From: Amphiscolops sp. MND2022
Taxonomy: Eukaryota
Reading direction: 5' to 3'
Assembly (NCBI GenBank): GCA_964187785.1
Contig: OZ076415.1
Span: 33,480,001 to 33,544,000, forward strand
DNA: 64,000 nucleotides
In this document: positions 1 to 34,579 of the stretch, piece after piece
Layout of the letters: every line of letters begins with the position of its first letter
Position numbering within the stretch: the first letter of the stretch is position 1
Notes under the pieces: model-generated
The model's database searches: none
What the model was told of the DNA's origin: nothing
The model's input: only the letters and a program-made list of their open reading frames with translations
Position numbers and translations under genes: made by a program

Positions 1-45
1 GCCAGATCGTGCAAAATTCTAAACCTGCTTACAACTATCAAGGAG

Positions 46-1839: not shown

Positions 1840-1909
1840 GCGAAATCCGGACAACTTTAAGGAGAACCTGTGGAATTCTGGGACCCTGTCCCCTCCTTCG
1901 GGAAAAACC

Positions 1910-1910
<1 letters not shown>

Positions 1911-1942
<32 letters not shown>
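1911..1942 (+). repeat. (ATT)n LINE 3' tail
   Basis: About ten ATT units about 70 nt after the RT stop codon. Confidence 0.9.
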
Positions 1943-1943
<1 letters not shown>

Positions 1944-2140
1944 GTCCAAACAATTTAGAGAAATTTCAAGTAATTCTAGAATGTTTCTAAATCCATTGTT
2001 GTTTGAAGTTTTTTATTTGGAAATCTCTAATAAATCAGCACTCCAAGTGTCATCAATGTGTTTCACAATAGATTATTTTAGTTTCATAAATTTTATTAGG
2101 TGGTTTGAAGTACGTTTCATTGATGAATATTTTAGTTAAC
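1943..2140 (-). pseudogene. Maverick retroviral-like (rve) integrase, N-terminal part
   Basis: IFINETYFKPPNKIYETK / KHIDDTWSADLLEISK*KTSNNNGFRNIL resembles the Maverick integrase start (IDEIYSKPP..NY.T..HIDD.WS.D..NN.GYRY). Truncated by the LINE tail. Confidence 0.8.
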
Positions 2141-2164
2141 TCCTGTTTGATCAATTATATTACG

Positions 2165-2290
2165 AAGTTGGAAATCATTGTTTCGTCTGGAGCTTCGAAT
2201 TTTGCCTAGAAAACAATCTACATATCTTTTATTTACAAGCTGATTTTCATTCGTATGTGTTGTAGGGTTTTGAATATCAAAGCCCACCCC
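2165..2290 (-). pseudogene. Fibre-like repeat unit, copy 1
   Basis: IQNPTTHTNENQLVNKRYVDCFLGKIRSSRRNND, an NKxYVD-type motif. The DNA is a diverged duplicate of 3140-3199 joined to 4305-4360. Confidence 0.55.
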
Positions 2291-2299
2291 TTATGTTAA

Positions 2300-2500
2300 A
2301 TCAGCGATTGTACTTCTTTTGCCCTAAATACCGAACCTTCCAGTAAGTGCAGCAGATGACTAAAAAGCTCGTGCAGATTTGATAGCCAAACTAGCTCCTA
2401 AATTAGAAGTCTATCTGAAATGCTCTAGCAGTGTTTTCCAGTATTTTCTTCCCGACTTCTTTACCTATTGGTTATAATACTTTATTAAAAACGTTCTTAG
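2300..2500 (-). pseudogene. Small basic Maverick ORF remnant (PW/core-protein-like)
   Basis: PIGKEVGKKILENTARAFQI / NLGASLAIKSARAF*SSAALTGRFG resembles small conserved Maverick proteins (recalled pattern only). Confidence 0.4.
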
Positions 2501-2559
2501 AGGACTTTAAGATTTTCCTCCACCTTCATTATATAATTGAGCCTTTCTCTTTTTATCCA

Positions 2560-2965
2560 TTAAAAATTTCTCAAGAATTTTTTGATAGAGAAAACGTTGT
2601 CATAATTTTGTAACCTGTAAGATGTGTATACCCTCGTCTTGACTTTTCAAAATATTGTTTTGACAGCAGTCACACTGGCTAAAAATGAAGCACCTCTTGC
2701 ATAGGGGACACCGATACTAGCTCTCACACCTGTTATAGTTAAACTACTGCCTACAACTAATCCGATTACACCTGCAAGATTTCTCAAAAAAGTAAGGTAT
2801 ACATTTCTTCTGTTCAGACTTTTATACTTTTCCCCATAGCGTTCATTGTGTTTTTGAGGGATTTTGGTATGTTTTCGTGATTGTGTTTCTCTGTTTGGTA
2901 TTTCAATTCTCTTATTCGATAGTCTTTGGTGAGTAGATCTTCTGAATTAGGATATGTCTTTTGAC
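2560..2965 (-). pseudogene. Maverick hydrophobic (PM-like) protein remnant
   Basis: EDLLTKDYRIRELKYQTEKHNHENIPKSLK / NERYGEKYKSLNRR..LAGVIGLVVGSSLTITGV..IGVPYARGASFLASVT: charged N-terminal half followed by a Gly-rich hydrophobic hairpin. Confidence 0.6.
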
Positions 2966-3199
2966 ATGTAAAAAACTCCTCAACACCTTTTTCTGTGTCT
3001 GTATCTTTTCCAAAGCGCGAGATTTTATAAGGTTTATTTCATAATCTGTAAACCCAGTGTGTCTCAAATTCCTTTCGTCTGTTATTGATAAATGTAATAA
3101 TACCGATCATTCAAGTATAACATCTTCAAAACAACTCTCGACATCATTGTCTCGTCTGGAGCTTCGACTTTTGCCTAGAAAACTATAGTATATATCTAC

Positions 3200-4304
3200 T
3201 AAGAACCAAGCCATCTTGGAAGAAGTTATGCGACGCGTGCCGTTAACTACCCTCAAGCGCGCTGTTAATTACCCTCTTGAGTCGAGTCAACTTGTTGACA
3301 ACAGTTCGAGAGTCTCTTGGAGTGAGTGATGATGAAGAATAAACAAGCCATTTTCAAAGGAAGACGACAACTAATGGAATTCCATTCAGGAAAGTTTACG
3401 CCGACTTAGGACAATTAACCGGGGTTTTAGCCGCTAAATTGATGTAAATGTCTCGTATATGGAGTCGCACGGACTTAACTGTGACTGAAGATGTTGAAAT
3501 ATGATTTGTTCATTTTAGAACTACCGCGTTTGGGTGCTGTTCGTTTGACACGATGGTGACCTAGGTAGGACCTAGCTAGGACAGCCGTCTGAGCCGTGCC
3601 CTAACTTGCGAGGATCTTGATGAAGGAGCTACTCAAGTGTACATGTAGAGTGAGATGAAACATACGTCAGTTCATCCAGAAATTGTACAGGTGTGAACAC
3701 TTTCTGCTACTGCTTGCTATACAACAGGTGCAGCCCAGAAGGTAGTCTTATCCTTGTGAAGTTTGGACATTCGGTCCACTTGACAGCAACAACAAACTTG
3801 AATCACATATGTCGAACGAACTCTTAATCTTTGAATACGTGTACATTTTTATCTTCATCTATATTTGTTTTGCTGATGCTGTAAAAAACTTTCATTTGGA
3901 AATTTTCAGACTCTTTTTTCAATTTACTTTCAAGATTCAAGCATTTTCTTCCAAGTTACTCCTCTCAAGGTTCAGGCATTTTCTTCCAAGTTACTTCCAA
4001 GATCAGGCATTTTCTTCCAAGATACTTCCAAGATCAGACATTTTCTTCCAAGTTACTTCCAAGATCAGGCATTTTCTTCCAAGTTACTTCCAATATCAGA
4101 TATTTTCTTGCAAGATCTTGCAAGACCAGACATTTTCTTGCAAGATCTTGCAAGACCAGACATTTTCTTGTAAGATCTTGCAAGACCAGACATTATCTTT
4201 CAAGATCTTTCAAGATACCTGCAAGAATAATGCATTGTCTTCCAAGATCTTGGAAGTGAAATCTGACAGATTCTTGCAAGAAATGTATGGGAGTTCGACT
4301 GGGG
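3200..4304. mobile_element. Unclassified composite insertion in the fibre-like gene
   Basis: Flanked by TATCTAC at 3193-3199 and 4305-4311; the Maverick repeat resumes on both sides. Right end GTTCGACTGGGG; no matching left TIR. Confidence 0.5.
3940..4260. repeat. Degenerate ~30-bp tandem repeat
   Basis: Units such as TTCCAAGTTACTTCCAAGATCAGGCATTTTC grading into TTGCAAGATCTTGCAAGACCAGACATTTTC. Confidence 0.85.
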
Positions 4305-4830
4305 TATCTACATATCTTTTATTTACAAGCTAATTTTCATTCGTATGTGTTTTAGAGTTTACAATATTACCTCTTGTGTTACTAAATCTAACATTGTGTA
4401 AATCATTATCTCTATCTGATGCGACCAAATTAACGTTGAAAGTCGTTTATCAATTAAATTTTGGTGACGTTAAACTACTTTCGAGAGCTATACAAATTCC
4501 CCATCCAATTTCAATTTTGCATCTTCACGTGATCTTAGTACAGTTTTTCCATCAAATTTGGCTGTTATATAATCTGTTAATGAATCTGTAATCGATTTAG
4601 TACATTGTTCGAGTGGATGCTCTGGGTTTTCTGACATAACTACTGTCAAAACCAAACCAGTGAAAGTGGTGTTTTTGTATATGTTGTTTTTATTATTCCA
4701 AACGATTAGGTTAATATCAAGTTCACTAATTGTGACAAAACTGTTAGTGAGACTCTAAAAGTCTTTTCAGGATTGGGTAGATTTTCATTTTCATTTTTAT
4801 TTCTCTTCTCTATCTCGCGTTCCAAAAAAA
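4305..4830 (-). pseudogene. Fibre-like gene remnant, copy 2 region
   Basis: THTNEN*LVNKRYVD at 4305-4360, continuing into ..FLGKSRSSRRDND at 3140-3190 once the insertion is removed. Confidence 0.5.
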
Positions 4831-4919
4831 CTAGCATCAGGATTAACTTTTTGGGGCAATATTTGAATTTTTACTAGAACTCTTATCCGAATTTCCAGGT
4901 ATGCCTATTTTGTCATTCA

Positions 4920-5410
4920 TTTGAAATAATGAATAAAATCGCTTGTTGAAAACCAAAATTTTTATTTTTCATCAAATCGAGAAAGTATAAAAAATAGCTT
5001 TGACAATTTTATCATTTGTTTTGAATTGGATTTGAAAAAGTATAACATTTACATACATATTCTGGGAATTTGTCCGCGAAACGGTTAGATATTATCAGAG
5101 GTTCAACAAAAGATTATTTAAAGTTAAAATGTTTAGTTTGAAAAGCCACAAACCGAGTTCATGTTTTATGATTATCCACTTTTTTGATACGTTTTTTGGA
5201 TTTGGGTTCATCTGTTCTTATAAACCAAATCCAAAAAACGTATCAAAAAAGTGGATAATCATAAAACAAAGTGGACTAAAAGACTTTACCATATACATAT
5301 ATGTATATGGTAAAGTCTTTTAGTCCTATTCTATTGGCAATTTCGACTATTTTAGAGTTTTTCGTTGCTTCATTCCGTTACCCATGATCTTTTATAATAC
5401 TGTTTGAAAT
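4920..5410 (-). pseudogene. Maverick adenain-like cysteine protease
   Basis: With 5222-5299 removed, one frame reads IANRIGLKDFTIYIRTDEPKSKKRIKKVDNHKT*TRFVAF..FK*SFVEP..PIQNK**NCQSYFLYF. This matches the NLD..GTHWV / YFDS(F/Y)G.PP / IQ...C..YCLY pattern. Confidence 0.7.
5163..5326. repeat. Two adjacent perfect inverted repeats
   Basis: 43-bp arms at 5163-5205 and 5225-5267 with a 19-nt loop; 54-bp loopless palindrome at 5273-5326. Confidence 0.95.
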
Positions 5411-5424
5411 CAAATATATACTAA

Positions 5425-6856
5425 TTAATCGACGCTGACCATCGCTCGGTTCTGAGATACATTTTTGAGCTAAAACTAAAGCTGTTGCTTAATAATCTCC
5501 ATACCTGCGTCAAAACCAGCTCTGAATTTCAATTTATATTGAAATTGTTGAGCAGAAGGTTTATCTTTCTGTGTTCTCAGATCGCCTACCCAAAGAGGGT
5601 CAACTTCTTTAAAATAATTGAAAGATATGTAAGGGCTTTTTCCTTCACATTGAATAAAACATTTATAGAAACGTCTCACTTCGTTATATACATCATTGTA
5701 TCTGTTTCTTTTAAATTCTCTATGATATTAGTTCTCGGGATATCTGCCTGTACCTACTTTGCAAAATGCTTCAAAAAATCTAGTCTTTGGAATTAGAGTT
5801 AGTTTGTTCTTGATTTGGCAAAGTTTTCGCTTGGCTTTGGCACTCAACTATTACGTAAATTGGGAGATCAAAACCTGATTCAGTTCCAATTTCCATCATC
5901 CAATTGTCGTTAGAAGTGACTGTTTTGTGTAACTCTCCTTGAAACACATAAGTATTCTGTACTTATTCTGAGCTTCAATGATAATCGGTTACAGAGGAAA
6001 TATTTTCCTTGCTCAGTGTATCATGTCTCTTAAACAAACTATATTTTTAATTTCACTTCTCGTTATACCAGCGATTGTTCTATAGATAGAATTACCAGTG
6101 TCTGTTCTTTTTAATGTGAGTATGTACTCCATTGCATATTTAATTTCATAATGATGAAATTCAAGTGCAAAAACGTCCTACAAGTTAATTCTTATGAATA
6201 CAGATTTTTTTCCATCCGTATCGTTGAGTAGTCTGTTTCTCTTTTCGATATCAATAGCTGTCGTTGGTTGGTTGCATCATCCTTATAGAATGTCATCGTG
6301 TTGTCTTCTTTATCTCAACGGAATTCATACTTAGAAGATGCTTGGTAAACATTATCAACTCGATCAAGGTTCTTTGATCCGAAGGAAGATAGTGTCATCT
6401 CCCAGAACAAGGATCTTCCAAAAACGTTATTCGGTTGAAAATCATTTTCATCAGCATAGTGTATCATCATTTTGTCGAGGAGACATGTGCTTCAATTTAT
6501 AAAAAGGAGTCTTTGATGTTAATGAATACATCTTCGCTAAGATTTAATACTTTGGAAGGAACACTTCCATTCATACTAGTAGTGCTTGTGGGTCTATAAT
6601 GATCGAACTCTGTCTTTAATCAAGTTCGATTTTCTTTTCAGGTTCATCAAGTTGATAATGTTTTGTTTTGGTTGTTTCTACAGAGTTACCAGACTTTTAA
6701 AATATAAAAACGAGTTTCTCTCTTGTGGAGTGCCACAAACCTACCAGCTGTTAATCGTTTCAGTTTTTTTGTTTCTCTCTCTTAATTTTCTTTTGGGTTT
6801 TGATTTATTTTTAATAAATCACTGGTAACTGTTTTTTTCTTTGGATGAAACGTCAT
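5425..6856 (-). pseudogene. Maverick double-jelly-roll major capsid protein
   Basis: Fragments NNVFGRSLFWEMTLSSFGS, NDNWMMEIGTESGFDLPIYVIVECQSQ, FCKVGTGRYPEN, SPYISFNYFKEVDPLWVGDLRTQK follow the order of Maverick MCP motifs. ATG lies 6 nt from the LTR junction. Confidence 0.8.
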
Positions 6857-6862
6857 TTATAT

Positions 6863-7367
6863 TGTAGCAATGCGCTATTTCTAATTTAGTTCATTTTCCC
6901 AACAGAGGAAATTGACTCAGAGACATAATAATTTCCAAAGCGGAATTATTAGAGCATTTTAATTTCTAAGCGAATAGCAACGCGCTAAAAGGAAATTGCA
7001 ATTCCCAAATTCCTTTAATGCTCAGCCAATAGGAAAAAGCCACGCGACAGTAGAACTGTCCTGAGCTGGAAAGAGAAATACAGGTACCCATTCCAACGCG
7101 GAACACTGAGAATTCACTCGCTCTCTTCTCTTCTCTTTCTTTCCTTACTTTGCTCTCTGACTTAAAACTCTCCCTTAAATTCAGCTGACAAAGAGTCCTG
7201 AATTTTAACTTAGAAATATTCTAAAGTCTGAAATGCTCGACTTAGAAAATTATTCTATCTTATAAACACCCCACTTCTAATTTACCTTCACTTTATAACA
7301 ATTTTTTGAGACTTATTGCAAAGTTAGAAAGCGAGTCCTAAGTAACTAAAATCACCGGTTTACAACA
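6863..7367 (+). repeat. 5' LTR
   Basis: Identical to 18583-19087 except at 7048/18768 (C/T) and 7308/19028 (G/T). CCAAT box near 7026. Confidence 0.97.
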
Positions 7368-7369
7368 TC

Positions 7370-7381
7370 TGGTGCGACCAG
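7370..7381 (+). promoter_or_regulatory. Primer-binding site (PBS)
   Basis: TGGTGCGACCAG 2 nt after the 5' LTR, complementary to a tRNA CCA end. Primer tRNA not assigned. Confidence 0.75.
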
Positions 7382-8029
7382 AGCAAAGAACAAAATCACT
7401 CCGCAATTTGTACGACCATAAAACCGAGCGTACAAAATAAATCTCTTTTCCCTGTGGTGGGTCCTATTTTGCAAAACTGAAATATTTAAAGCAAATATTT
7501 TTGAGAAAATTCAAATTCTTGTTTTTGCAACACTTAGTATCTAAAGCAGATACTAAACAAAATTTCAATTTTTGCAACATTTAGTAATCCAAAGCAGATA
7601 CTAAACAAAATTCATACTCTTGGTACTGAGTCTAAACAGTATCAACTAACGCTAGCTTCGGTATTAGCGTGTGCGGGTTCCGTGGAAGAAATTTATTTCT
7701 GACACACGAGTGTTCCTTAAATTGCACGATCCCAGCGAGGTTTCGCAAGAAATTGGAAAGTCCATATTTCACCTCGCCTGCTGCCTTGGAATCTAGCATT
7801 TCGTGTTAAGGCTTAAATACGCAGAAACTGTCCGTTTCAAAGGAGCAACAAAACTCCAAAAATATATATTTGCCAAAGGATCAAAGAGATTCCTTTGTGA
7901 ACAATTTCTATATGTGTATTGGAGCAAAGAAACTTCTACACAAAAAACCAGTCTGTTATTGCCAGAAATAATAACAAAATTGTCAATTGTGAAAAAAAAG
8001 GAGCAAAATAAACGTGATTAAATAGACAA

Positions 8030-9132
8030 ATGGCAAACACTGTAGCGTACCCTGACTTAGCATTAGAAAAATTCATTGGAATTGACTCAAGTGAAGATCC
8101 AACTGCCTTTACTCGTTTGTTAGAAAAGAAAATCAGCTTCTCGCTAGGAAGTAGACCTACGGCAAATGAGAACGGCCAACAAACCGTTTATGACGACCGT
8201 AGAAAAGCACTTTTTGGATCAGTCCTACGCGGACCTGCGGCTGAGTGGTTTGATTCACTAGACGCTGCGTTAACATGGGAAGAATGAAAACACAGTTCAT
8301 AAACAGGTTCACGGACGGAAAAATGCAATATAGATTCCGAATTGAGGCCGAGAATCTGAAAAGACAGCCTGATGAAAATATAAAAAGTTACATCCACAGA
8401 ATAAAAACGTTGGTAGACAAAGGCTGGCCAACACCGTCAAATGCGAATCAAGAGGCTATCACAGCATGCGAAAATCAGAGAATTGGGAAGTACAAAGACT
8501 ACTTCATAAGAGGCTTAATGCCCCCGGGTCTTAAACAGAAAGCCCATCAAGCAATGATTGAAGATCCCAACAAATCATGGGACGCTTTACAGGCTCTTAT
8601 CATAAATAAAGATATGAGTTTAGTTGTGAGTGCCGAAATGTCCGGCTTGCAACCTTCAAGTTCCCAAACTTCAACAGGGACAATGGACGCCCGTTTCACT
8701 AACATAGAGAAAACATTGAATGAAATCACCAACATGGTGAAAAATCATCAAATCAATGCTACCTATGACCCGAACAACCCAAAAATGAAACAAGACTTTA
8801 CTAGATTTTGCAACTATTGCAAAAAATCCGGACACACAATCAAGTACTGTTGGACATTGAAAAAGAAGAAAGAAAACGAGGAAAAACCTCCTCCCCAACC
8901 AAAAGAAACATATGCGCAAAACTATCCAAGTCGACCCAAGTCTCCGAATAATAACACATCGCAATCGGACAATCGGTCCAACGGCCAAAGAGGCAGAAGT
9001 AATAGTCCTTATGTTTCAAATAGCTATCGAAGCAGAAGTAACAGCTACTCTGGAGCTGTTCGGTTCGAAGCAAGGCCTGACAAGGTGAATTCTTTGTATG
9101 ACACTCTGCAGTCATGCAATCCTTTAAACTAA
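8030..9132 (+). CDS. gag: Gag with one internal frameshift near 8283
   Basis: 8030-8287 (KFIGIDSSEDP..LRGPAAEWF) continues in the -1 frame (KTQFINRF..CNYCKKSGHTIKYC, a CCHC knuckle). Confidence 0.85.
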
Positions 9133-12100
9133 TCAAGTCTCCGAACCAACAAAGTGAGGAATCAAATGAAACCCCTCACATTCCAACTGCTGGAACGTCC
9201 GGCCAACATTTTTATATAGAATTATTCCAATACGCCGTCGGAGACAAAAATAAACATAATGGCCTTAGCACCCAATTTCTCATAGATACTGGCGCAACGT
9301 GCTCCATTATCAACCGTGAGACATTCACTGAGATTAACAAAATTCAGCCTTTAGTTGTAACGCCTCTCGAGAAATCGCCTTTAGCTGCTAATGGACACGC
9401 AATGCCCATGAAAGGGAAAACTATTATTCAGTCTGCGTTTGACGTAGAATATTCTTGTGTGATCGAACACACTGTTTATGTGTCTGATTCCCCCGAGGCG
9501 AGAATGAACATTCTTGGAATGGATTTTTTGGCAAATTTTGGTGAATTCATTAACTTGAGAAATCCAATGCTAATTTTAACGGTCTTCCCCGGCAAATGTG
9601 TTAAACTGTCGCCTTATTTAGACAAGCCTTTTCCCTACTTCTCCCAGGTTAATTCAGTAGAATTGACTCAAGACATTACAATTGCACCGTATTCGACCCG
9701 AGTTTTGAGTTTAATTGCTAGAGATGAAGATAAACATTTGTTCAAACAGGGAACAAGTTTCCGTTTACACCAAGACATTTTAGATACTGGCATTTACAGG
9801 TATCACGTGTATTGCTCACAAGACGAGTCGAAATATCCTTTAATGCTGAACAATCCGAACCCGAATAGTATTACTATTCGTAAAGGAATCCTTGGATACA
9901 CATTGCTCGACAGCGTCCAAGAGACCTCGCAATTGATGAGTGTCGTTGACAATGTCGCTTTCATTGAGTATCTCAAAACTTCTGAGTCTCAATGGAACAA
10001 GGATTTACACGTTTGTTCGACCGAACCGTATATTTATTCCTTAACGGAAATTGATTCACGGAAACAAATGGCCGAAAGCGCTATTTCGCAAAATGAACTG
10101 GCTACTGATTTCTCCAATGAGGTGAAATCATTACAGCCCAAAATTGCTTCCGATATTAAAAGGAAACAACTCGACGATGAATTTTACGCCGAGTTTAGTC
10201 CCGCCGAACGCAACTTTTTAGAAAAGTTCGACTTTTCTGAATCTGATATGAATGACCGTGAATTACAACATCTTCTCCGAGTTTTAGTTGAAAACAATGA
10301 CGTGTTTTCAAAATTTACTTATGATGTTGGAAAAATCACACAAACATTTCATGTACAATTGAAGAAAAACGCCGAATTACGAAAACAAAGGCCCTCAAAA
10401 GTCCCTCTGCACTACAGAGACCGACTTGAAATTCTTCTGAATGAACTGCAACGAGCTGGAATCATTCGAGAAATGGGAAATGATGTGGAAATGGGTTCCC
10501 TATTCACAAACCCTATCATCATTTTACCAAAAGGAGATACCGTGAAGCTTGTGATTGACGCACGTTATCTTAACTCAATCACTGACTTGACTAACTACTC
10601 ATGGCCCCTTGAACCAGTACAAATGTTACTGACACGACTTGATGGAGTTTATTACACAACGAGTGATTTAGCTTCCGCCTATAACCAAGTACCCCTCACC
10701 GAGGATACGAAGAAGTTGACAAGCTTTATTGTTGGTGGAAAACAGTACATGTTCGAACGAGGATTCTATGGTCTTTGCGGACTACCAAACTTCTTCAGTT
10801 GGATAATGACTATTCATTTCGCTGAAATGATAGCCAAGAAACAAGTGATAACATATATTGATGATGTTATCTTACAGGCAAAAACCAAACAAGAAATGTG
10901 GAATAATTTGGATTCATACTTCAAGTGCTTGAGATCATCAGGTCTGAAAGCTGCACCGAACAAAACAAAACTGTTCTTGAGGAAAGTTCAGTTTCTTGGA
11001 CACATTGTTTCCGACAAAGGAATCCAGCCAGTAGCCAAAAAGGTACAAGATTTGAAAAACCTGAAAAGCCCTGAGAACAAAAGAGATGTAATGCGCATCT
11101 TAGGAAGTTTAGGTTTCTACAGCACCTTCATCAAAAATCTACATGTAGATTCGAAACCTTTCTACGAACTTCTGAGAGATGACACTCCATTCAAATGGAC
11201 AAAAGAGCATGAGAACTTGTTCCAAGACATAAAAAATAGAATCAGCGAAGAAACCATCTTAGCTGTACCAAACCCAAAGTATCCGTTCCACATCCATGTC
11301 GACTCCTCCAGTATTGGTACGGGATCAATCTTAATTCAAGATTTTCCTTCCGGGAAACGTATAGTTTCCTTCAATTCGCGAGTCTTTACAAAGGATGAAC
11401 AAAAGATGTCAACGCTACATCGAGAACTGTGCGGAATCATTTCTGCTCTACAAACGTATGAGCATTTCATAATTGGATCTCGGCATCCCATCAAGGTATT
11501 CTGTGATCACAAGCCCCTCCTGTATCTATGGGCACGCAAAGGAAGATTATCTCATAGATTCTTCCGCTACCAAGTGATTATCACTCAGTTCACTAATTTG
11601 CAAATCATTTGGACCCCTGGAAAGAATTTAGCGTTTCCAGATTTGCTGAGCAGGAATGTGTCGTTGAAAGATCTCAACGGTCACCAATTACTTCACAAAG
11701 AAATTGCAAAAGATATAAAGTTCTTCAGCCAAAGTGGACACGAAGTTCAGTATCTGATAGACCACAACAGCCCTGCTGAAAGCGCCAATGATGATTTTTA
11801 CCCAATTGTTTGCACTCACCTGGGTGAAACCAAGAAGCTTCACCTGAAAAAAGATGGTACAGATCTTATTTGTACGGTATACGATCCAAACTCTCCGAAA
11901 GCGCTCTTTGATGTTTCTGACTCCTTCCGTGAAGGTAAGGACATCAACATTCGACGTAAATGGCAAACCCCACCAATGGTTGTGGAAGCCGAAGTTCAGG
12001 AAAATCATTATTCCGAAATTGACTCCGAAACTGACAATAGTGACAATGAGGCTTCTGACGAAGATCCTCTATTGAACACAGAGGTTGTAAATGCATCTAA

Positions 12101-14048: not shown

Positions 14049-14159
14049 TATTATTATAATTTCTCTTTTTCTACTCTCTCTCGCCAAATCATTCCCAACA
14101 AATCCTATGCAAAGCGCATTTGTATAACTTTCTACTGTTTCTATCTCTATTTATACAAG

Positions 14160-16514
14160 ATGTTTTATTTTATTCTTTTCCTTTTTCCTTTTTCTTGTGC
14201 AAGTGATGACTTTGACAATGTGTCAAAGAACTTGTTTGTATCTCATTACGATTGCACAAAAATGCAAGACAATCGAATGTACTCCCTGAATAAGGTAGCA
14301 GAATGCAAGATTACACCAGAAAACTTGTATGTCACGCCGGTTACTATCACACTTTATCAGAAGAACTACCGGACTGACCTGGCAGCAACAATGTGTTCTG
14401 TCAAGGCCCATGTCTTCCGCTACAATTGTGGAATGTTTTCGCATTCGTCCTACGTTCATACTCAAAATAGTATAACATATGACCTCATCGTTACCCCTGA
14501 AATGTGCCGACAGGCATCAAAGACAAACAAAATTAAAATTTCGTCTTTTAGCGAAAACTTCGATGCCCCAATTGAATTCGATACAAAGAAACAATCGAAT
14601 TTCAATGATAGACAATCAGTCCGCACAACCATTCATTGCTCAAGTGGTCAAGTACAGCACTATACCTTCGAGACGTTCATGCAACGTGTGAATTTGACAT
14701 TCGATTACGGAACCAAAGAGGTTTCCAATCCAAATAAACAAAAATTGCCATGTCTTTTAATGGAGGGTGGTTGCGAGACCACTACTTTAGACCCATTCGC
14801 TTACACGTGGGATACTCCCGAAAACTGCGTGATGACAAAAATCCTCACTCAGGAAGCAAAAATGCTTAAGTATCCATTGTCAACGAACAGAAACGAAAAC
14901 CAATTTTTCCTAATCAGCGAATATAATGAGACTGGCAAAGGAATGAACCTCAAAATCAAAGTCTTCCCTGAAAGCTATGAGCTATGTGGGAAACCTGAGC
15001 GATTGTTCGAAACAAATTTTGAGAGTCTATTTGTGACTTACCAAGGAGGTTTCGCAATGCCAGGTGGAGAACTACGAACTAAAGAACATGCTTTTAACGC
15101 CTACCAATTTTCCATTGACAACTCTAGCCAGGTCTCTTATTCGTCATTATCTTTCAGCAAATCAAATGGCCAATGGATTGGTGCACAGCCTTGGCATACC
15201 GTCGGCGCGGATGAAATTGATTATGAATTGCACTTGGGAACAAAGTTAGACTATATAATGTACTTCAATGCGAAGCAATTGAGGCATTCTGAAATGACAC
15301 TTCTGCAGAGTCAATGCGAACTCGAACGAACTCAAATGTTAACTATTTTAATGTTAGCAATGCAAAACACAAGACTTGCCGGTTACATGTTAACTGGAAA
15401 CATCTCTATGTTCCTTGACACCGATGGAAGTGTCGCACGGTTATACCATTGTCCGAAGTTTTTGTCGCCCTTGAAAGTGCTTGATAAATGTTATGATCGA
15501 ATCCCGATCATGTTTGAACGGTCTACGAAATTTGTAGATCCTATCACCCGTCAGACTTATGATTTTGCATCCGAGATACCCTGTTTGGGAGATTACACAA
15601 ATGTGTTTCAACTTGATCTCGAAAATGACAATTCCTGGTACCAACTTTTACCTGAGCCCATGCCTTTCAATAAACCTTTGTTGTTCAAGCCAACTGAACT
15701 TGGACATATTACTCAGTTTCCAACTTTCGACACCAGGCGTGCTGGAATGTACACCCCAAATCAAATGAAAAATTTTTGGGATAATGTAATCCACAACTCT
15801 TCTTCTGATACATTATTGAAGAAGCTTACTCGGACTATTTTGACTCGAGGTAACTCAGTTCGAATTTCCGAACCGGGAAACTTGGAACGTCTTTTGAGTC
15901 TAAATGATAGACTTCTGTTGGATCACTTGTTGACGCCTTCTTTTTTCGTCGATAAATTCAAGGAAACTTTTGGCGAATTGGGATATATTATTCAATGTTT
16001 AGGAAACTTTTTTGCTTGTTTCCTTTTGGTAAAGTTCGTTATTGATGTTGTTGTCATCGTCCTCCGAGGACTTGAAATTCGAAAAGTTTCTGGTGCCACT
16101 TTTGGTTTTGTCAGAACTATGTTAGGCGCAACTTTTAATTTATTTGTTCTCTCACTTCAGACTCCAATGTACGAAAATGAGGAAAATAAAAGGATTTCAA
16201 ATGGTTTCTCGCAGAACCCTGCAGGCAATAGACCTATAGCTGCACCAATGTACGAAGAAAATCCGACTCTTTTGTATCCTCAAGTACATCTCTTGAACAA
16301 TCCGATTGCGATTGGTTCTACTCTTAATGAAAGACAAAGAGCTGACTCAAATGTATTAAATCAAACAGGAAATGCTCCTAGTACATTAAATACCTTTTTA
16401 CAAAATAACAATGGCAATAACAGTTCTGGAAATGCTCCGTCTACTGTCAATGAAAATGCTCCTAGTACCTCAAATAACAACAGTAATGGAAATGCTCCAT
16501 TACCCCCACCATAA
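14160..16514 (+). CDS. env: Envelope glycoprotein, class III (chuvirus G / gB-type) fusogen-like
   Basis: N-terminal signal peptide; HYDC..YSLNKVAEC, CGMFSH, PEMC, CELER..LAGY, HC..KCYDRIP..FVDPITR..PC motifs; six N-x-S/T sequons; TM segment near 15995-16075; long N-rich tail. Confidence 0.8.
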   Translation: MFYFILFLFPFSCASDDFDNVSKNLFVSHYDCTKMQDNRMYSLNKVAECKITPENLYVTPVTITLYQKNYRTDLAATMCSVKAHVFRYNCGMFSHSSYVHTQNSITYDLIVTPEMCRQASKTNKIKISSFSENFDAPIEFDTKKQSNFNDRQSVRTTIHCSSGQVQHYTFETFMQRVNLTFDYGTKEVSNPNKQKLPCLLMEGGCETTTLDPFAYTWDTPENCVMTKILTQEAKMLKYPLSTNRNENQFFLISEYNETGKGMNLKIKVFPESYELCGKPERLFETNFESLFVTYQGGFAMPGGELRTKEHAFNAYQFSIDNSSQVSYSSLSFSKSNGQWIGAQPWHTVGADEIDYELHLGTKLDYIMYFNAKQLRHSEMTLLQSQCELERTQMLTILMLAMQNTRLAGYMLTGNISMFLDTDGSVARLYHCPKFLSPLKVLDKCYDRIPIMFERSTKFVDPITRQTYDFASEIPCLGDYTNVFQLDLENDNSWYQLLPEPMPFNKPLLFKPTELGHITQFPTFDTRRAGMYTPNQMKNFWDNVIHNSSSDTLLKKLTRTILTRGNSVRISEPGNLERLLSLNDRLLLDHLLTPSFFVDKFKETFGELGYIIQCLGNFFACFLLVKFVIDVVVIVLRGLEIRKVSGATFGFVRTMLGATFNLFVLSLQTPMYENEENKRISNGFSQNPAGNRPIAAPMYEENPTLLYPQVHLLNNPIAIGSTLNERQRADSNVLNQTGNAPSTLNTFLQNNNGNNSSGNAPSTVNENAPSTSNNNSNGNAPLPPP

Positions 16515-16808
16515 AGTTTACAAAAAACGTTTACTCTTTAGTGAAATTTCTCTTACTTAAAAGTGATAAGGCTTCTTGGAATAGATACCACTGTGATTGT
16601 TGATGTTTTTCTTCTGGTCACAAACATAATGACACCAGCACAAATTGACTTACAAACCCTATATAACTCGCTTTCTAAAATTTAGTACAGTCGCCAACTA
16701 CTTAACCTCAAGCCTAATACCAACTATTTATTCTCCAGTTACTCCACTTATCCAGTTCTCTTGCTTTTGATATTCACTTTTCATATTCAACTACAAATAT
16801 AATTTATA

Positions 16809-17339
16809 ATGTCGCATGCTATTAACTTGTTCGAACCTGAAGGTTTTATCCCCAACGACTTACGCCCTCCTAATGTCAACTTCCGATCACGAAAAACTAA
16901 GCGGGTAAAGCCCTGCTTCCCCAAACCCTTCAGGCAGGCTAACAAAAGAATAGCCTCTGAAGCTCCTGAGCCAAATTGGCCAAAAAAGACATCCAAATTG
17001 GAAAATGATATGAACTTAGACCCTAACCGCCTGTCAAAGAGACTCGGTGATGGGAAAATTAAAGGCCCCTCGTGCGTGTCAAGGAGACTCGACGACGGGT
17101 TACCCAAAGAAAAAAATTAGTTTCCAAGCCTTAAAGAAAGACTTGATATCCAAAAGTCCCGAGAGACAAATATAGATACAGACGACCCAAAATTCATTAA
17201 ATTCCTGAAGTATGGTATGAGGAAGGACCATAATGAATGGTTCCTTGCCACACCTAAACAAGGAAGTGAACTTGTTAACAAGAAGTTGAATTGTTCCATT
17301 GTCATTCCCCCTGAACGCTCCCCCGCTATAAACATTTAA
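16809..17339 (+). CDS. Accessory ORF4, basic/Pro-rich; in-frame TAG at 17118-17120
   Basis: 103 aa to the TAG, then 72 more open codons in the same frame to TAA at 17337-17339. Lies inside the LTR-bounded element. Confidence 0.55.
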
Positions 17340-17352
17340 TCTACCAAAGGAA

Positions 17353-18369
17353 ATGAATCAATGGAGACTAAAAGATCGTCTTCCCGAAGAAAGGAAGTAC
17401 GTAATCTACAACCATCAAATTGATTCTCTAATTAAAGCCCCCTTTGGTGTAATCACCGCGTTTCCTGACGACCCAAACCCCCTGTTTAACGACAACGCCA
17501 GTACTTGTAGCTCGTCAATCAGTACACCAGCTTCCAAGGAATCACATCATGATAATTCCCAAATCTCACACAACAAACAACCAACAGTCAATGCGACTAC
17601 ACAAACAAAAAATGAAGAGTGGATAGACACACCTGATACCAATCTTACCGCTGCACTCTGGAAAACTGAATTCGCAATTGCCGAATTTGAACAGCAAAAC
17701 CGTAGTCTGAATATCGAACTAGCCAACTTAAAGAATGCCCTCTGCTCTGCCAATCGATCACGAGCAATGGCTAAAGAGAATGCAACTCGAGCAGAATTTA
17801 AGTTAGAGATCTCCGAAAGAGTAACATCAGACCTTTTCGATGAGAACAAGGAACTGAAGAGCCAAATTGAAGAAGCGACCTCCAAAGCGGAGTCACTTCA
17901 AAGTCAACTCTTGGAGTCCATTAAAACAAACATTCTTCTCAAAGAAAAACTTGATGCCTTCGATGAGGCAAATAAACAGTTCAAGGAGATCCTTGATAAA
18001 AAGGACACCAGGCTCAAAGACCAAGCTAACATCGACAAATTGATCAAACAACTGCAAATAATGAGAGTCGAGATTGACATTCAACGTGCAGAGGCTATCC
18101 AGTTAATCCAAGCAGTAGATGGGAAACAATATGAAAAATTAGAAAAATGCCTACACGCCCTGTTAACCCATGCAGACCACTGGGATTGGCAACAGTATGA
18201 GAAGTATTCCATATTTAACCTAAAACGAGGAAATGTAAAAGCCAGACTATCAACTGTATACTACCCCATCGCCTATAACTTCGACAAGGATCCAGAATGG
18301 AAAACCAAATGCACTAGACTACCCTGGCCTGTCAACACGAAACAAGTCCCAACCGGAAAGAATCATTAA
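17353..18369 (+). CDS. Accessory ORF5, 338-aa coiled-coil protein of unknown function
   Basis: Intact ATG-to-stop ORF with a heptad-like E/K/Q/L-rich core and an aromatic C-terminal domain (HADHWDWQQYEKY..LPWP). Confidence 0.75.
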   Translation: MNQWRLKDRLPEERKYVIYNHQIDSLIKAPFGVITAFPDDPNPLFNDNASTCSSSISTPASKESHHDNSQISHNKQPTVNATTQTKNEEWIDTPDTNLTAALWKTEFAIAEFEQQNRSLNIELANLKNALCSANRSRAMAKENATRAEFKLEISERVTSDLFDENKELKSQIEEATSKAESLQSQLLESIKTNILLKEKLDAFDEANKQFKEILDKKDTRLKDQANIDKLIKQLQIMRVEIDIQRAEAIQLIQAVDGKQYEKLEKCLHALLTHADHWDWQQYEKYSIFNLKRGNVKARLSTVYYPIAYNFDKDPEWKTKCTRLPWPVNTKQVPTGKNH

Positions 18370-18570
18370 AAGCCCCTATAAACTGCTCTTCAACAAAAAC
18401 TGAAACTCTTTTAACATGATAATTTGCTTAAACATATTTAACTTTTAAAATTTCTTTACCTTAACGTAAACTTTACATAAAGCTTTACCCATTATTCATT
18501 ATATCCATTTTATAACCATTATACCCATTAATTGATTTTGGTATTACGACTAATGCAGTCTTCTCTGTCA

Positions 18571-18582
18571 ACTGGGGTGAGT
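18571..18582 (+). promoter_or_regulatory. Short polypurine-tract candidate (PPT)
   Basis: ACTGGGGTGAGT directly before the 3' LTR; atypically short. Confidence 0.45.
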
Positions 18583-19087
18583 TGTAGCAATGCGCTATTT
18601 CTAATTTAGTTCATTTTCCCAACAGAGGAAATTGACTCAGAGACATAATAATTTCCAAAGCGGAATTATTAGAGCATTTTAATTTCTAAGCGAATAGCAA
18701 CGCGCTAAAAGGAAATTGCAATTCCCAAATTCCTTTAATGCTCAGCCAATAGGAAAAAGCCACGCGATAGTAGAACTGTCCTGAGCTGGAAAGAGAAATA
18801 CAGGTACCCATTCCAACGCGGAACACTGAGAATTCACTCGCTCTCTTCTCTTCTCTTTCTTTCCTTACTTTGCTCTCTGACTTAAAACTCTCCCTTAAAT
18901 TCAGCTGACAAAGAGTCCTGAATTTTAACTTAGAAATATTCTAAAGTCTGAAATGCTCGACTTAGAAAATTATTCTATCTTATAAACACCCCACTTCTAA
19001 TTTACCTTCACTTTATAACAATTTTTTTAGACTTATTGCAAAGTTAGAAAGCGAGTCCTAAGTAACTAAAATCACCGGTTTACAACA
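18583..19087 (+). repeat. 3' LTR
   Basis: 503/505 identical to the 5' LTR; followed by TSD ATAT. Confidence 0.97.
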
Positions 19088-19091
19088 ATAT

Positions 19092-20249
19092 ATCAAGAAT
19101 CTTTTGATATGAGGAGTAAAACGAATGTGTTCATCATGAATATCAATCAATTAACCATAATCATCTTCGAACCAGAATTCGAGGAAATCAAAGTTTTCCT
19201 AAATATTATGTTTGTGTAAAACTATGGTGCGTTCACGAACCGTTTTTGCATCAGGAGGTTCATTTAAATTAATCAGAAACATTTTATTCGAAGGATGACT
19301 TTTTCGGGAAGATTCTATAATAGCATCAGAAGATATATGAATTCTACCAAGGTTAATAATGTTACTGTTTTGTCGAGAATAGTTTAAACCTCAGTAATAG
19401 ATAGGGCAACCGCGATTTGCCCTTTATTTTTTAAAATTTTGCCCTTTATTTGCCGCCCTTTATTTTAAAATTTGCCCCTTATTTGCCCTTTATCGGCACG
19501 CGTTTGAAAGCGAGAATTTAACAAAAAAGTCAAATTCGTTTATTAAAGTGAAATGTTACAATAAATGCAAATGTAATTCTCCAAATTTGTAACATCAAAA
19601 TTACGGTCCTTGGCTAGCATCTTGTTGAGTTTGCTAAATGGTTATTTCTGAGAAATTCCTGTACACAAACTCGTACGACTCGTATTTCTCAGAAAAGGGG
19701 TGATTATTTTCGAAAAAGTACAAGATTCGATATATTTTGCCTTTTTTGCCTTCTATTAAACTTTTTGCCCCTAACCCACATTTGTGCCCATTTGGCCCTT
19801 ATTGCCCTTTTGCCCTTTTTGGTTGCCCTAGTAATAGATTATCTCAGAGTTGAAATCCAATATGACTCTGTGTGTTTTGTTCTCAAGTTGAATTCCAAAG
19901 TGTCACCAAATAAAAGTTACCAATGCTGTGCAGTGTCCTTTCGTTAGCTGGTATTCGTATCGTTGATTTTGTGGAATCGTTCAAAGGAAGACTACTTGAC
20001 AATTGTCTGTATATTTGTTCATTTTTTGTGTGATTTTATTTGCTCCCTATGTCAGTGATGATACATGATTTAGTTTCACCCCAGTAATGGAGCATATTTG
20101 TTTTACTGGTTGAGTTTCATTTAGAGTTATATGTGGTAACAAATAGTTACTCCCATTTCATAACTTCCATCTGAAAGGTCGATAGAATCGTTTAAAGGCA
20201 TTTTGCACAAGTTTTCTCTAAATTTTACTTCCATTGCTATTTGGAACAT
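19092..20249 (-). pseudogene. Maverick minor capsid (penton), split by a hAT MITE
   Basis: N-terminus MPLNDSIDLSDGSYEMGV; C-terminus NIINLGRIHISSDAII..NLNEPPDAKTVRE..LEFWFEDDYG*LIDIHDEHIRFTPHIKR fits the penton end pattern. Confidence 0.75.
19402..19830. mobile_element. hAT-type MITE (429 bp)
   Basis: TIR TAGGGCAACC / GGTTGCCCTA; exact 8-bp TSD GTAATAGA (19394-19401, 19831-19838); subterminal TTGCCCT repeats. Confidence 0.92.
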
Positions 20250-20299
20250 TTGTCGTGTATTTTTTGTCCATTAGTTATTAATATTTTTCTTCTATTAGT

Positions 20300-20520
20300 T
20301 TATTGTTTATATTCATAGACGGTCAAAATTGTTCCGTATTTATTTCAGTTTGATTTGAGCGCTCTTTCAGAAAAAAAGCCTCTGGTTCATTGATTGAGAT
20401 TTTGATTCCGGCAAAAACATCACCTTTTAAATTTTCTGGTCGTTCAACTAAAACATTGGGGTCGATTCAAAGAAATACGAAAAGAGTTTCGTTTCGTTCT
20501 AATTTATTTTCCTCCAAGTA
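20300..20520 (-). pseudogene. Maverick PZ-like conserved C-terminal motif
   Basis: IDPNVLVERPENLKGDVFAG resembles DPNELVERL.LL...AGN; located just upstream of the penton. Confidence 0.45.
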
Positions 20521-21186
20521 GACTGTAGACGAAGTAAACTCGATTTACTATATAATCTCAATCTTCCAGCATTTTGCATAAACAAAAAGAGAGCTTTTTT
20601 GTTTTTCTCCAAACAAATTTTCTCCAATAACACTTATGGATAGTTTGAAAAATTATGATGTCACTTCAGATGATGCTGTCATCTGCTAATTGGATTTCAT
20701 CATCAGTGATCAGTGACTTCGAAAGGTCTATCATTTTTGTTATAGTTAATTATATAAGATGATGTGGATTGAGAACTTTGTGATGATATTATTCTGGTTA
20801 AGTAATAACTGCGATAGTAATTTTGTTGCTTATTGGTTGGGTACTTGAATCTAGGATATCATCTTCTATTGGTAAAGGAGTAGCAACGTCTGGCTCCTGC
20901 TCCTAATTGGCGAGCGGGATTAGCGAAAGTATCCACTACGTTAGAATGGTTTTCTTTAATGACATTTGTTTGTTTTTCTTTCTGATATTTTGTTTTTCAG
21001 GCATATTCTAATGTTTTCTTTTGAGTTTTCCCATTCAAATGTAGATTTTTAGATCTTCTTCTGTTTCACTAGATAATTTACGTTTTATTGAGCCTTTACA
21101 CAGTTGGGTGTAAAATATCGCAGATAAAAATCTGGAGTATGATTATTTAGAATCAAATTAGGTGTCTTTAAATCAATATTAGATGT

Positions 21187-22766
21187 TTAGTTGATTGGAT
21201 TACTCGCTGGAATATAAAGCGGATCAAGGTTCAATATTTATTTCCCTTTTCTGATTTTTGTAAGATCGAAAGTTATATTATGATAATCTGTTGCCCAAAC
21301 ATCATGACGAAAATTTTGAACACTTCAATTGTCATATCGGTGCTAGCTAATTGTCTTTGGATGCAATCCACATAGGAAACCCGGGTTTCCCTCCCATACA
21401 AAAACTGGTCAATCATACTCTGCCATCATACTCACAGTATGATTTCAGGCTGATCATACTCTGGACCATAATGGTTTATGGTTCCAGGCTGACCATACTC
21501 TGGACATATATGGTCCAGTCTATGATCAGCCTGGAACCATAAAAAAGCAAAGTGTATGGTTCCAGCCTGACCATATTCTGGGCCATATATGGTTCAGTCT
21601 ATGATCAGCCTGGAACCATAAACCTTTATGGCCCAGAGTATGGTCAGCCTGGAGCCATAAAAAGAAAATTAGGATAATGTAGTCAATTAACACGTACACT
21701 GATGAAATTACAAGATATTCCTCAACCAAAGGTCCAATACAATCACCAAATTGAAAACAAGGTAGCAATCATCAATTTTGGGCATCTTTTGCTGAATTAT
21801 TGGTAATTTTTCTAGAAATAATCGAAAATCATACTGCAAAGTGGGTACTGCTATAACAAAAGAGTTAGTTATTAACAAATGACTGGTTGAGAACAAATTG
21901 AGTTACTATAGTTTGTTTTTAACTCCGCTTAGAGCTTAACGGAGTTCTGACCTGCAATGTATCGTTCGCAGATACAAAAGGTCGAATGTGGCTCCACTGC
22001 CTTCAGCCTATAAAGCTGGCTGTTCTCAATATTTGAAAATTTTTGTTTGAAAATTGAAAATATATAAATTTTAAAAAATTATGATTCCAGGCTGGCCATA
22101 CTCTGAACCATATATGATTCCAGGCCGATCATATATGATTCCAGGCCGATCATACTCTGGACCATATATGATTCCAGGCCGATCATAGCAAGATCTAAGT
22201 AAGGAAATTTGTATGATTTCTATGGTGCTATAATATGGTCAGATTATGATCGGCCTGGTCGGGAAACCCGGGAAAACTCCTAGTCAAATTGGATGAATGG
22301 CTGATGAGTTTTCTCGAAATGTATCTTTTGGTAATTCGTAGAAACCATATGTAAAAACAAAAACACAAAAGTTATTATGGCGACCTGTTTTGAACTGCAT
22401 CAGTACTCCTTCATCATTCAGTTGTTCTTTGGTTCGATCATCGAGTAAAATCATTTTATGTTTATCGATAATCTTGTAGATTCTTTAGTTCATCAAAGTT
22501 TCAGCAGTGTTTCTGTCAGAATTTCATATATAATGTTTGGTGGTAAAAAAAACTTTGTCAGCATTTTACAATTTCGTGACAAGGTTCTTGATGAATTGTA
22601 TGAGAAGACATATAAATTTTGTCAAACTCATTATTAACTTCAAATATTATTTCGAAAAGCAAAGTTGACTTTCCGCTAGCACTTTTACCTGATATTATTC
22701 ATCTAATTGATGATTTGGTAGAAAATGTCCATTTAGGTTTTAAAACTTTGAACAACTTTTCTATAA
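21187..22766 (-). pseudogene. Maverick A32/FtsK-like packaging ATPase, split by an insertion
   Basis: IISGKSASGKSTLL (Walker A), FDKIY, ILLDD (Walker B), FKTGRHNN, FYELPKDTFREN; after the insertion LASTDMTIEVFK..ITFDLTK..LNLDPLYIP. Confidence 0.88.
21380..22272. mobile_element. Non-autonomous DNA transposon, CMC/EnSpm-like
   Basis: TIR CCCGGGTTTCCC / GGGAAACCCGGG; AA(A) on both flanks; subterminal arrays of GATCATACTCTGGACCATATATG(G/A)TTCCAGGC in both orientations. Confidence 0.75.
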
Positions 22767-22846
22767 CACTGCAAAAAATACACGTATACGGAACCAAACA
22801 TGGATACAATACACACTCATGGTTCAGGCGACTCAACGGAACCTAC

Positions 22847-25800: not shown

Positions 25801-26425
25801 GATGATTCCAACTGCTACAACACCAGCAAGAGAAGACCAGTTCACATGAATATAGAAGCTGAACTGCAAATCCACCAAAAAGAAACTTACCTTATTCTCG
25901 AATCAGGTATAAACTACAATAAAACACCAATTGAACAGACTGTATCCGTAAGAAAGTCAAACAGTTTACCATTTGCGAGACAGATCGAAAAACTAGAGAG
26001 TGTCTCGTACTTTACAAAAAATGATAAGAAGAAAACAAAAATCTACGGGTGATTTATTACAGGAAAACCAGAACAGACCACAGAAGGACAGTGAGGAGAA
26101 AGAAAATCGTCATATGCGGACAATCTCCAGCAAATACAGAGTCAACCGTGAACTACGGAACTCTCACTATCATACACCTTACATCGTCCATTATGCGAGG
26201 AGGAGGGGATCGTGACATGCGAAAGTTACGCTACCACAAAGAACAGCAATTATGGAGTTGTTAGCTGAGAAACTCAGAATGATTCTAATTAGACTGCTCT
26301 GTTTATGTTCAGGTATTGTACTATGTTCGTCATTATCTGACCCATTATAGATACAAAGTTAAAAGAATACAGTTAAAGATTCGTGATACATCAATTGTTT
26401 TTACGTAGATCTAGCAATCTTAACA
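22847..26425 (+). mobile_element. Old, internally deleted Mag-like gypsy element
   Basis: Diverged LTRs at 22847-23049 and 26211-26425; PBS TGGCGCAATC at 23050; PPT GAGGAGGAGGGGA; TSD CCTAC/CTTAC; knuckle CNNCQTIGHFARVC; RT fragment SPVVITVKKD. Confidence 0.8.
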
Positions 26426-27177
26426 CTTACTTTGCTGAATTACGCAGAAGTATCTCACTGTCCCGGATAACAAGACGACACTGGCATGTTACTCCCCATT
26501 GGTTATCGCCAATAAGAAGGTGGTGGGAATGATGCAATAGAGCTGAAATAAATGCAATCAATGAGCCTCATGCTACACCATTACCTGCCATTTTGTTGGT
26601 TTTTCATACATGTTTGGAATACTCAATGTAAACGTTAGTTGGACGAAAACATGTATCATGTTACATTCTTTCATCGTGAGAGATGAAACCAGAAACCTTG
26701 GTATTTTCCGCCCACATATAATGGGGAAGGAAGATCATAATCTGTTTTGCGTTTTTCTCCCAAATTTTCCCAAATCTCCACTTTGTTACTCCATTTAGTA
26801 AATTCTAGTCACCATGGCGCAGTAGGTTCGAACCCGTGCTGATGCGTTACATTTTTAGCGGAAAGTATCCCGGTGATTAGCGGGCGTCTTGTTAACTGTG
26901 GAATGTTTTTTCACCTCGGCTAATAATCATCGTGCACGGGTTTTTCAATTTGGAACCTGAATTTGGAAACGAAATGAATCTCTTCGTTTCATAAGCGGTG
27001 AGAACCACGAAGATTGTGGCCATAAACTTTTGTCTTATTTTCCGTTCAAGACTTATAGCCATTCTTCAAGTTGATGAAAGTGTTTCAAGGCAATTTTTGA
27101 TCTGCACTTTGAAATGAATCGCTTTTTGACTAAACTTTCCTTCCACCCATGTTTTATACGAAAACAATCGACGAATA

Positions 27178-29315: not shown

Positions 29316-29512
29316 TGTAATAGCTATCTGTAGCTGAGATAATTACAGAACACTGGTGAACAAGCAATACTGCATTCTCGTTAGACCTTGTGGCAACTGG
29401 ACGTATTTTTATTCAAGTTTTACATGGTTTTTGTATGTAAGCAACTTGTTCAATTAATTATTTTAGACTGCTCTTTTTTTTATTGAGTTCAGCTCGAGAT
29501 TGCTCTCTCACA
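29316..29512 (-). repeat. Shared LTR (3' LTR of the right copy, 5' LTR of the left copy)
   Basis: On the minus strand it is preceded by a PPT and followed by a PBS and gag. Confidence 0.85.
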
Positions 29513-29730
29513 AGCCCCTTTTTAAAGGTAAGTTATACCGATAATAAATGTACGTAATACTGCTGATTTAACAAACAAATATGTATGTATTGGTGAGCAA
29601 CAATTGCCAGAAATGGATAATTTTGTATACAGTAAACACCGTGGAGTTTTTAAAGTTTTTGAAGTTATGATTTCTGGAAGGCTGTTTTAGTTTTCTTCAA
29701 TTGGCTGTGGTTCGTCTAGTTTTGTAATCA

Positions 29731-33590: not shown

Positions 33591-33598
33591 TCCTCCTT

Positions 33599-34564: not shown

Positions 34565-34579
34565 GATGTCGCAGCGCCA

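Follow-up and report, generated by a model that had tools for sequence, protein, structure and literature searches.

Maverick/Polinton-type virion gene remnants interleaved with younger insertions in Amphiscolops sp. MND2022

A probable Maverick/Polinton fossil

A 64,000-nucleotide (nt) stretch of the Amphiscolops sp. MND2022 assembly (GCA_964187785.1, contig OZ076415.1, forward-strand positions 33,480,001 to 33,544,000), hereafter the window and numbered from its first letter, holds what is in all probability an old copy of a Maverick/Polinton (polintovirus, adintovirus-type) that integrated into an animal-type genome and has become a neutral fossil. From position 1943 to about 22770, six AT-rich stretches summing to 6,082 nt are interleaved with five insertions. 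The six stretches carry collinear remnants of Maverick/Polinton-type genes, all on the minus strand, in the series ATPase, PZ-like (questionable), penton, a short gap, capsid, protease, fibre-like (questionable), PM-like and integrase. Their GC content is 0.297-0.333, that of the insertions is 0.357-0.402 (four of the five measured, with the 78-nt one left out), and the window beyond 26425 stands at 0.378. Typical features of Maverick/Polinton elements are thus present as remnants: a double jelly-roll capsid, a penton near the capsid, an A32/FtsK-like ATPase, an adenovirus-like protease and an rve integrase. The coordinates, the minus strand, the reassembled length of about 6 kb and the Maverick/Polinton identity proposed in an initial annotation made from the letters alone are borne out, the identity by capsid, ATPase and integrase matches that are significant, collinear and on the same strand.

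Relatives of the remnants, labelled P for proteins and L for loci, were collected starting from a 105-residue capsid fragment, which was searched against 1.84 billion proteins and matched 24 of them (best non-self E 8.5e-22). A profile of 13 capsid relatives matched 263 proteins, with the double jelly-roll domain PF21738 in all 120 among the matches listed. An alignment of 14 capsid relatives led to 18 metagenome loci and an ATPase alignment to four viral loci. Scans of viral contigs, aimed at capsid or integrase relatives, and a scan of prokaryote genomes returned none, and nothing came from a word-based search for homologues of the capsid 3' frame. The remaining genes constitute independent evidence, since it was only beside capsid relatives that they were found. 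At the DNA level, the locus L008 aligns with the window in four collinear blocks of 62-69% identity.

Fifteen profiles derived from these relatives were run across all six frames of the 64 kb. Every match of at least 8 bits inside the six stretches (35 of 35) lies on the minus strand, and the pieces of a gene follow the order of its model (Spearman -0.99 to -1.0 in the four genes with at least three pieces). Outside the stretches, 8 bits were reached only by two Gypsy integrases and by one stray protease match at 63276 (9.6 bits), which was taken as chance. As a further control, the same stretches were shuffled 40 times and the best minus-strand score was set against the highest shuffle score: 82.4 against 10.8 for the capsid, 61.8 against 5.4 for the PM-like gene (L008 protein), 42.0 against 7.4 for the penton, 22.7 against 9.0 for the ATPase, 19.5 against 6.9 for the integrase and 17.1 against 6.7 for the protease, a margin of at least 10 bits in each case. 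The plus strand and the reversed sequence of the stretches scored no higher than 5.6. Thus, among the eight genes initially called, ATPase, penton, capsid, protease, PM-like and the 5' end of the integrase exceed all 40 shuffles, while the PZ-like call is weak and the fibre-like call suggestive. Pfam, run on 18 minus-strand frames and independent of the relative-derived profiles, recognised PF21738 in one of them (E 3.5e-5, 23.6 bits, short of the curated threshold of 27); at the 5' end of the ATPase its P-loop matches were weak (best E 0.003).

Remnants of the virion genes

The capsid pseudogene spans its full expected length at 5426-6681 (minus strand) and is identified by PF21738 and by its relatives, four intact ones of which match the region in tblastn with E 1e-63 to 3e-66. 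Its matched pieces contain six frame changes and eight stops. A structural model of the intact relative P0141 (predicted local distance difference test score, pLDDT, 66) matches the capsids of PBCV-1 (Paramecium bursaria chlorella virus 1), an iridovirus, Sputnik and mavirus (best E 1.1e-12), and from this modelled fold we assign the remnant to the double jelly-roll type. By sequence, the capsid alignment found no match in the PDB, and a viral structure library returned only distant capsids that are at most 16% identical. Next to the capsid lies the pseudogene of an adenain-like maturation protease (4919-5407, minus strand), which is matched by the L008 protease in tblastn (E 1.4e-23). In the PDB, this protease family matches S273R of African swine fever virus (ASFV; E 4.9e-5) and the adenovirus protease (E 8e-4). 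The span of the gene is within 12 nt of the model once its insertion is subtracted.

The penton, a single jelly-roll minor capsid protein, is represented by a pseudogene at 19100-20285 (minus strand) that is split by the insertion 19402-19838. It is covered by three pieces over model positions 10-262 of 263 (11.7, 12.3 and 40.5 bits), and after subtraction of the insertion its span also lies within 12 nt of model length. A model of the L001 relative (L001:1012-1818, pLDDT 80) matches the mavirus penton (E 2.6e-12) as well as adenovirus penton bases, so that the predicted mavirus-type fold of this intact relative identifies the remnant as a penton. The adjacency of penton and capsid is independently supported by P0004, a protein called in a different degraded copy, because it matches both genes of the window. 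Further along, an A32/FtsK-type packaging ATPase pseudogene (21205-22713, minus strand) is split by the insertion 21380-22272 and consists of three ordered pieces (22.2, 19.2 and 5.6 bits in the 64-kb profile run). Without the insertion it is 95 nt short of the model, and its relative L013:3713-4492 matches Pox_A32 (E 2e-6).

PM, PZ, PW, hAT-like and fibre-like are provisional names, in part given by position. The best defined of these remnants is the pseudogene of a PM-like membrane protein at 2549-2954 (minus strand), which matches L008:2530-3048 with 62.5 bits and aligns with L008 DNA over 373 nt at 62% identity. The L008 protein itself is weakly similar to an open reading frame (ORF) that precedes the PZ-like gene in L020 (pairwise E 0.002) and barely similar to the corresponding ORF in L019 (E 0.012). 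The PZ-like remnant (20341-21200, minus strand) is recognised solely by its C-terminal motif at 20475-20344, which shares 41% of 46 amino acids (aa) with L001:100-933. With one relative as query it scored 7.5 against a shuffle maximum of 5.6, and with a profile of the eight-sequence family 1.2 bits, as high as in 18 of 40 shuffles; the 890-nt space fits the 834-nt ORF of L001 plus a gap.

The fibre-like repeat gene remnant (3140-4830, minus strand) is split by the insertion 3200-4304 and occupies the position of the fibre-like ORF of L008, to which it is linked by a tblastn sum E of 0.049 at 4825-4620. Its profiles do not rise above the shuffles (4.8 bits, with one of 40 as high, and 3.2 bits, with ten of 40 as high). 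The element contains two copies of a 107-nt unit, one in this region and the other just before the integrase. The unbroken second copy (2171-2277, minus strand) is 88-92% identical to 3140-3197 plus 4306-4367, and it weakly matches the fibre-like gene of L008 (66 nt, 67%, E 0.077). The pair may have arisen by local duplication, or the second copy may stem from another short fibre-like gene.

At the far end of the series, the 5' end of an rve integrase pseudogene is preserved at 1943-2130 (minus strand), where it is cut by the tail of a long interspersed nuclear element (LINE). The integrase profile scored 17.9 bits at 2078-1962, and the Pfam rve model alone did not detect the fragment. In BLASTP the fragment matched 121 of 124 targets, with a median of 32.7 and a best score of 41.2 bits for Polinton-type integrases, as opposed to 16.2 and 14.2 bits for the two Gypsy integrases of the window. 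Judged by these sequence scores, the fragment is of the Polinton type and not of the Gypsy type. Its relative in L014 matches both rve and a chromodomain.

All of these genes are decayed. The matched pieces contain 26 stops in 1,095 codons (2.4%, compared with 8% in random sequence of this composition), and this is a low estimate because the pieces were picked by alignment. Frame changes affect the ATPase, penton, capsid and PM-like genes, every gene bears stops or frameshifts, and in-frame stops occur in each, so the copy is a dead fossil. The near-complete virion module of the initial annotation therefore holds as a set of pseudogene remnants and not as one of working genes.

Insertions and truncated ends

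Sequence evidence backs the boundaries of all five insertions, and because of their target duplications and the continuity of relatives across them, we conclude that they arrived after the element. The largest is a young, envelope-bearing Ty3/gypsy long terminal repeat (LTR) element between penton and capsid (6863-19091, plus strand; the element extends to 19087, followed by the target duplication). Its 505-nt LTRs differ at two positions (99.6% identical), and the 4-nt target duplication is perfect. It encodes a gag-like protein, a pol of 1,648 aa, whose domains Pfam recognised, and an envelope of 821 aa, which matches the Monjiviricetes fusion protein family (E 4e-41, Pfam); gB-type envelopes in gypsy elements have been described across animals, according to excerpts of PMC13524379. 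Two extra ORFs lie ahead of the 3' LTR, at 16803-17120 (105 aa) and 17332-18369 (345 aa, no clear Pfam match). Judged by its LTR divergence of 0.4% and its long open frames, this element is far younger than the Maverick remnant.

The insertion at 3200-4304 contains 31-nt tandem repeats (GC 0.40) with a 7-nt flanking duplication, and it interrupts the 107-nt unit that is continuous at 2171-2277. A small element with inverted ends and an 8-nt target duplication occupies 19402-19838; from the length of the duplication we take it to be hAT-like. The fourth, at 21380-22272, has 12-nt terminal inverted repeats and internal repeats (GC 0.386). The remaining one, 5222-5299, proved to have a correct boundary, L008 being continuous across the site, but not to be a transposon. 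These 78 nt are a fold-back of inverted copies of both flanks: 5222-5268 is the reverse complement of 5162-5208 with one mismatch, and 5273-5299 that of 5300-5326. The interval 5162-5326 consequently holds an inverted repeat of 47 nt together with a 54-nt palindrome that is perfect, and the insertion resembles the scar of a template switch at a site of DNA breakage.

Both ends of the element are truncated, one by the LINE and the other by unrelated sequence near 22800. The former is the 3' part of a younger retrotransposon (1-1942, plus strand), whose open frame at 1-1836 (612 aa) matches RVT_1 (E 6.7e-30) and whose (ATT)n tail at about 1911-1942 adjoins the integrase remnant. On the other side, the Maverick remnant is adjoined by an older LTR-like element (22846-26423) with ends sharing 78.5% identity, and Gypsy fragments in tandem and in part duplicated lie nearby at 27177-34772 (minus strand); Pfam found no match in 26424-27180. 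The locus is a clean case of transposons nested in layers whose relative ages can be worked out.

Gene order and relatives

Four marine-type metagenome contigs (L008, L009, L001 and L002) carry intact genes, unlike the window copy. L001 encodes a PZ-like protein, penton, small basic ORF, capsid and the start of the protease, matching the window except that the basic ORF, which lies between penton and capsid in five relatives, was undetected there (best scores elsewhere in the window, at most 4.7 bits). L008 continues with capsid, protease, fibre-like, a 133-aa ORF and PM-like, of which the 133-aa ORF was not found in the window; profiles of this ORF and of the PW-like protein gave nothing above chance in it. 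Together, L001 and L008 repeat most of the window order, and the locus records in one place an arrangement otherwise seen piecemeal in short metagenome contigs of this capsid lineage. L009 differs from the window by an extra ORF after the capsid gene. This ORF (L009:537-1208, about 220 aa) resembles an HNH endonuclease by eye, with no Pfam match at E 0.01, and L008:615-800 retains only its 3' end; it may be a homing endonuclease that the capsid lineage acquired and then lost.

Gene order had been put forward as a means of placing the element among Maverick groups, which our comparison does not support: the Polinton loci L013, L014, L019, L020 and L022 each show another order, so order marks close kin and is too fluid to classify. 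Vertebrate Mavericks, as described in excerpts of Barreat and Katzourakis (2021; PMC8097293), share with the window the ATPase, minor capsid, major capsid, protease, integrase and probably PM and PZ, including the run of minor capsid, short gap, major capsid and protease. They consist of two modules, polymerase-atp-pm-pz and int-mcp-pw-Mcp-pro, on opposite strands or, in Xenopus, on the same strand. This two-module architecture is not seen in the window, where all genes lie on one strand. The integrase heads the capsid module in vertebrates and comes last in the window, pm sits between atp and pz in vertebrates and the PM-like gene after the fibre-like one in the window, and the polymerase and termini of vertebrate Mavericks are not preserved in the window copy.

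Adintoviruses, in excerpts of the preprint by Starrett et al. (bioRxiv 10.1101/697771), share a hexon-like capsid, penton, adenain-like protease, FtsK-type ATPase and rve integrase with the window and likewise have degraded copies in animal germ lines. PLA2X is a marker of the Alpha class, and GasderminX and cupiennin are markers of Beta. Because no polymerase was found, the window gives no Alpha or Beta assignment; PLA2X, represented by a profile of five visually grouped ORFs, reached at best 3.2 bits in it, and the gene could lie in the lost part. A thin literature search found no description of this gene order or lineage, and the supplementary maps of the preprint may show the order.

The capsid tree, which is midpoint-rooted and built from a 101-column segment of 38 rows with no named reference Mavericks among them, groups the window fragment with P0069, L008, L009, P0121 and other fragments at moderate support (89/93). 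A 29-row group that includes the window is split from nine Polinton loci with support 100/98, subject to a long-branch warning, and identity between the capsid group of the window and the other Polinton loci is 15-23% over 87 aa. The nearest intact capsid is that of P0069 (60% over 84 aa). Over these 84 aa, P0069, P0121, L008 and L009 are 52-60% identical to the window, and L001 and L002 40%. The P0069 and P0121 clusters comprise 83 and 21 members on ENA contigs of up to 811 and 963 kb, with at least 425 aa in three of 15 and 12 of 15 members listed, respectively, which suggests multi-copy families inside host chromosomes. Such sister families with full-length capsid genes would be a place to study a recently active animal Polinton lineage.

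Alternative explanations

Several observations weigh against the identification as a Maverick/Polinton or against parts of it. With two class-specific polymerase profiles, no polymerase was detected in the 64 kb (best 5.0 bits); the window has no terminal inverted repeat linking the element ends and no 6-nt target duplication, and neither border of the element has the AG/AGT end motif, so that two defining Maverick features are unseen. The ten near relatives (L001-L009 and L011, at most 3.6 kb) reach no ATPase, integrase or polymerase. The integrase assignment rests on about 43 residues, the PZ-like call is weak, and the fibre-like call, which draws on position and the tblastn sum, is suggestive. 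The capsid profile, being seeded from a fragment of the window, is partly circular, whereas the Pfam match and the neighbour-gene matches are not. The lack of a polymerase match of at least 8 bits would also suit a Polinton-like virus or non-autonomous element that had a virion module and integrase and never a protein-primed polymerase, relying on another replicase or a helper, and the near relatives are too short to show one. However, polymerase absence says little, as each end shows a cut, at the LINE tail (1942) and at the change of sequence type near 22800, and a third polymerase class could be missed by two profiles that are blind to each other's class. Moreover, ATPase, protease, penton and capsid accompanied by an rve integrase make up the usual Polinton gene set in excerpts of PMC4028283, and we regard an element of this polymerase-less kind as improbable.

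It is more improbable still that two or more separate Maverick fragments were joined by the 12-kb LTR element or by a rearrangement, in which case the order would not be that of one element. The block of ATPase, PZ-like and penton does lie 12 kb from the block running from capsid to integrase, no fetched relative covers the whole order, the second copy of the 107-nt unit, ahead of the integrase, could be the trace of a rearrangement, and the 133-aa ORF of L008 is missing. Yet the perfect target duplication and near-identical LTRs show the LTR element to be a clean insertion, without which penton and capsid are 170 nt apart, compared with 211 nt in L002 and 268 nt in L001, and both blocks are alike in strand and GC content. 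A living, spliced or domesticated gene set, in which the breaks would be introns or the host would retain a gene, has a negligible chance of being correct. One public contig does have a called protein of 67 aa (P0001) that corresponds to the 3' part of the capsid, but the capsid span of 1,253 nt against 1,248 nt expected (with P0133 and P0098 as rulers) and gaps of at most 23 nt between pieces exclude introns in this gene, and this explanation was rejected on the capsid span together with the in-frame stops in every gene.

If the locus is the Maverick/Polinton fossil that we favour, its ancestor would have formed an icosahedral particle from capsid trimers and pentons, as excerpts on the family suggest (PMC4028283, PMC11161782). 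By analogy with the family, the ATPase would have packed the DNA, the protease matured the particle and the rve integrase mediated entry into the germ line, while replication would have relied on a protein-primed DNA polymerase whose gene lay beyond the preserved part or was lost. Five insertions later disrupted the element, and the LINE and unrelated sequence truncated its ends. The present copy is inert, makes none of these proteins and has acted as a landing site for transposons.

On its own, the locus is another dead Maverick, of a kind well known from many animals, with a mildly unusual gene order and lineage. In excerpts of the respective sources, 96% of vertebrate Maverick loci are degraded (PMC8097293), ancient placental copies are among the degraded ones (PMC9683012; 10.1101/697771), and Mavericks make up 4.5% of one acoel genome assembly (PMC6451197). 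A bolder proposal, which we consider rather unlikely, is that it is the fossil of a large undescribed Maverick/adintovirus lineage of marine invertebrates, with a split capsid group, its own one-strand order (fibre-like and membrane-protein genes, integrase last), recently active multi-copy sister families with from tens to more than 100 nearly identical capsid genes, many at full length, on host-sized contigs, and a replicase unseen so far.

Other features of the window

The window as a whole is transposon-rich and of animal type, with a LINE, Gypsy-type elements and single-exon genes. A single-exon ORF at 44588-47683 (plus strand) encodes an NTPase of 1,031 aa that weakly matches Schlafen-helicase and STAND, and is followed by an ankyrin ORF at 48140-48700 (plus strand). 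On the minus strand, 59975-62644 is a single-exon ORF for an 889-aa PARP12-like protein, which, like the NTPase, may be antiviral. A 573-aa membrane protein, likewise from a single-exon ORF, at 55828-57549 (minus strand) appears dolichol-kinase-like by eye and has no Pfam match. Finally, two long palindromes of 88 and 72 nt lie side by side at 34852-35037.

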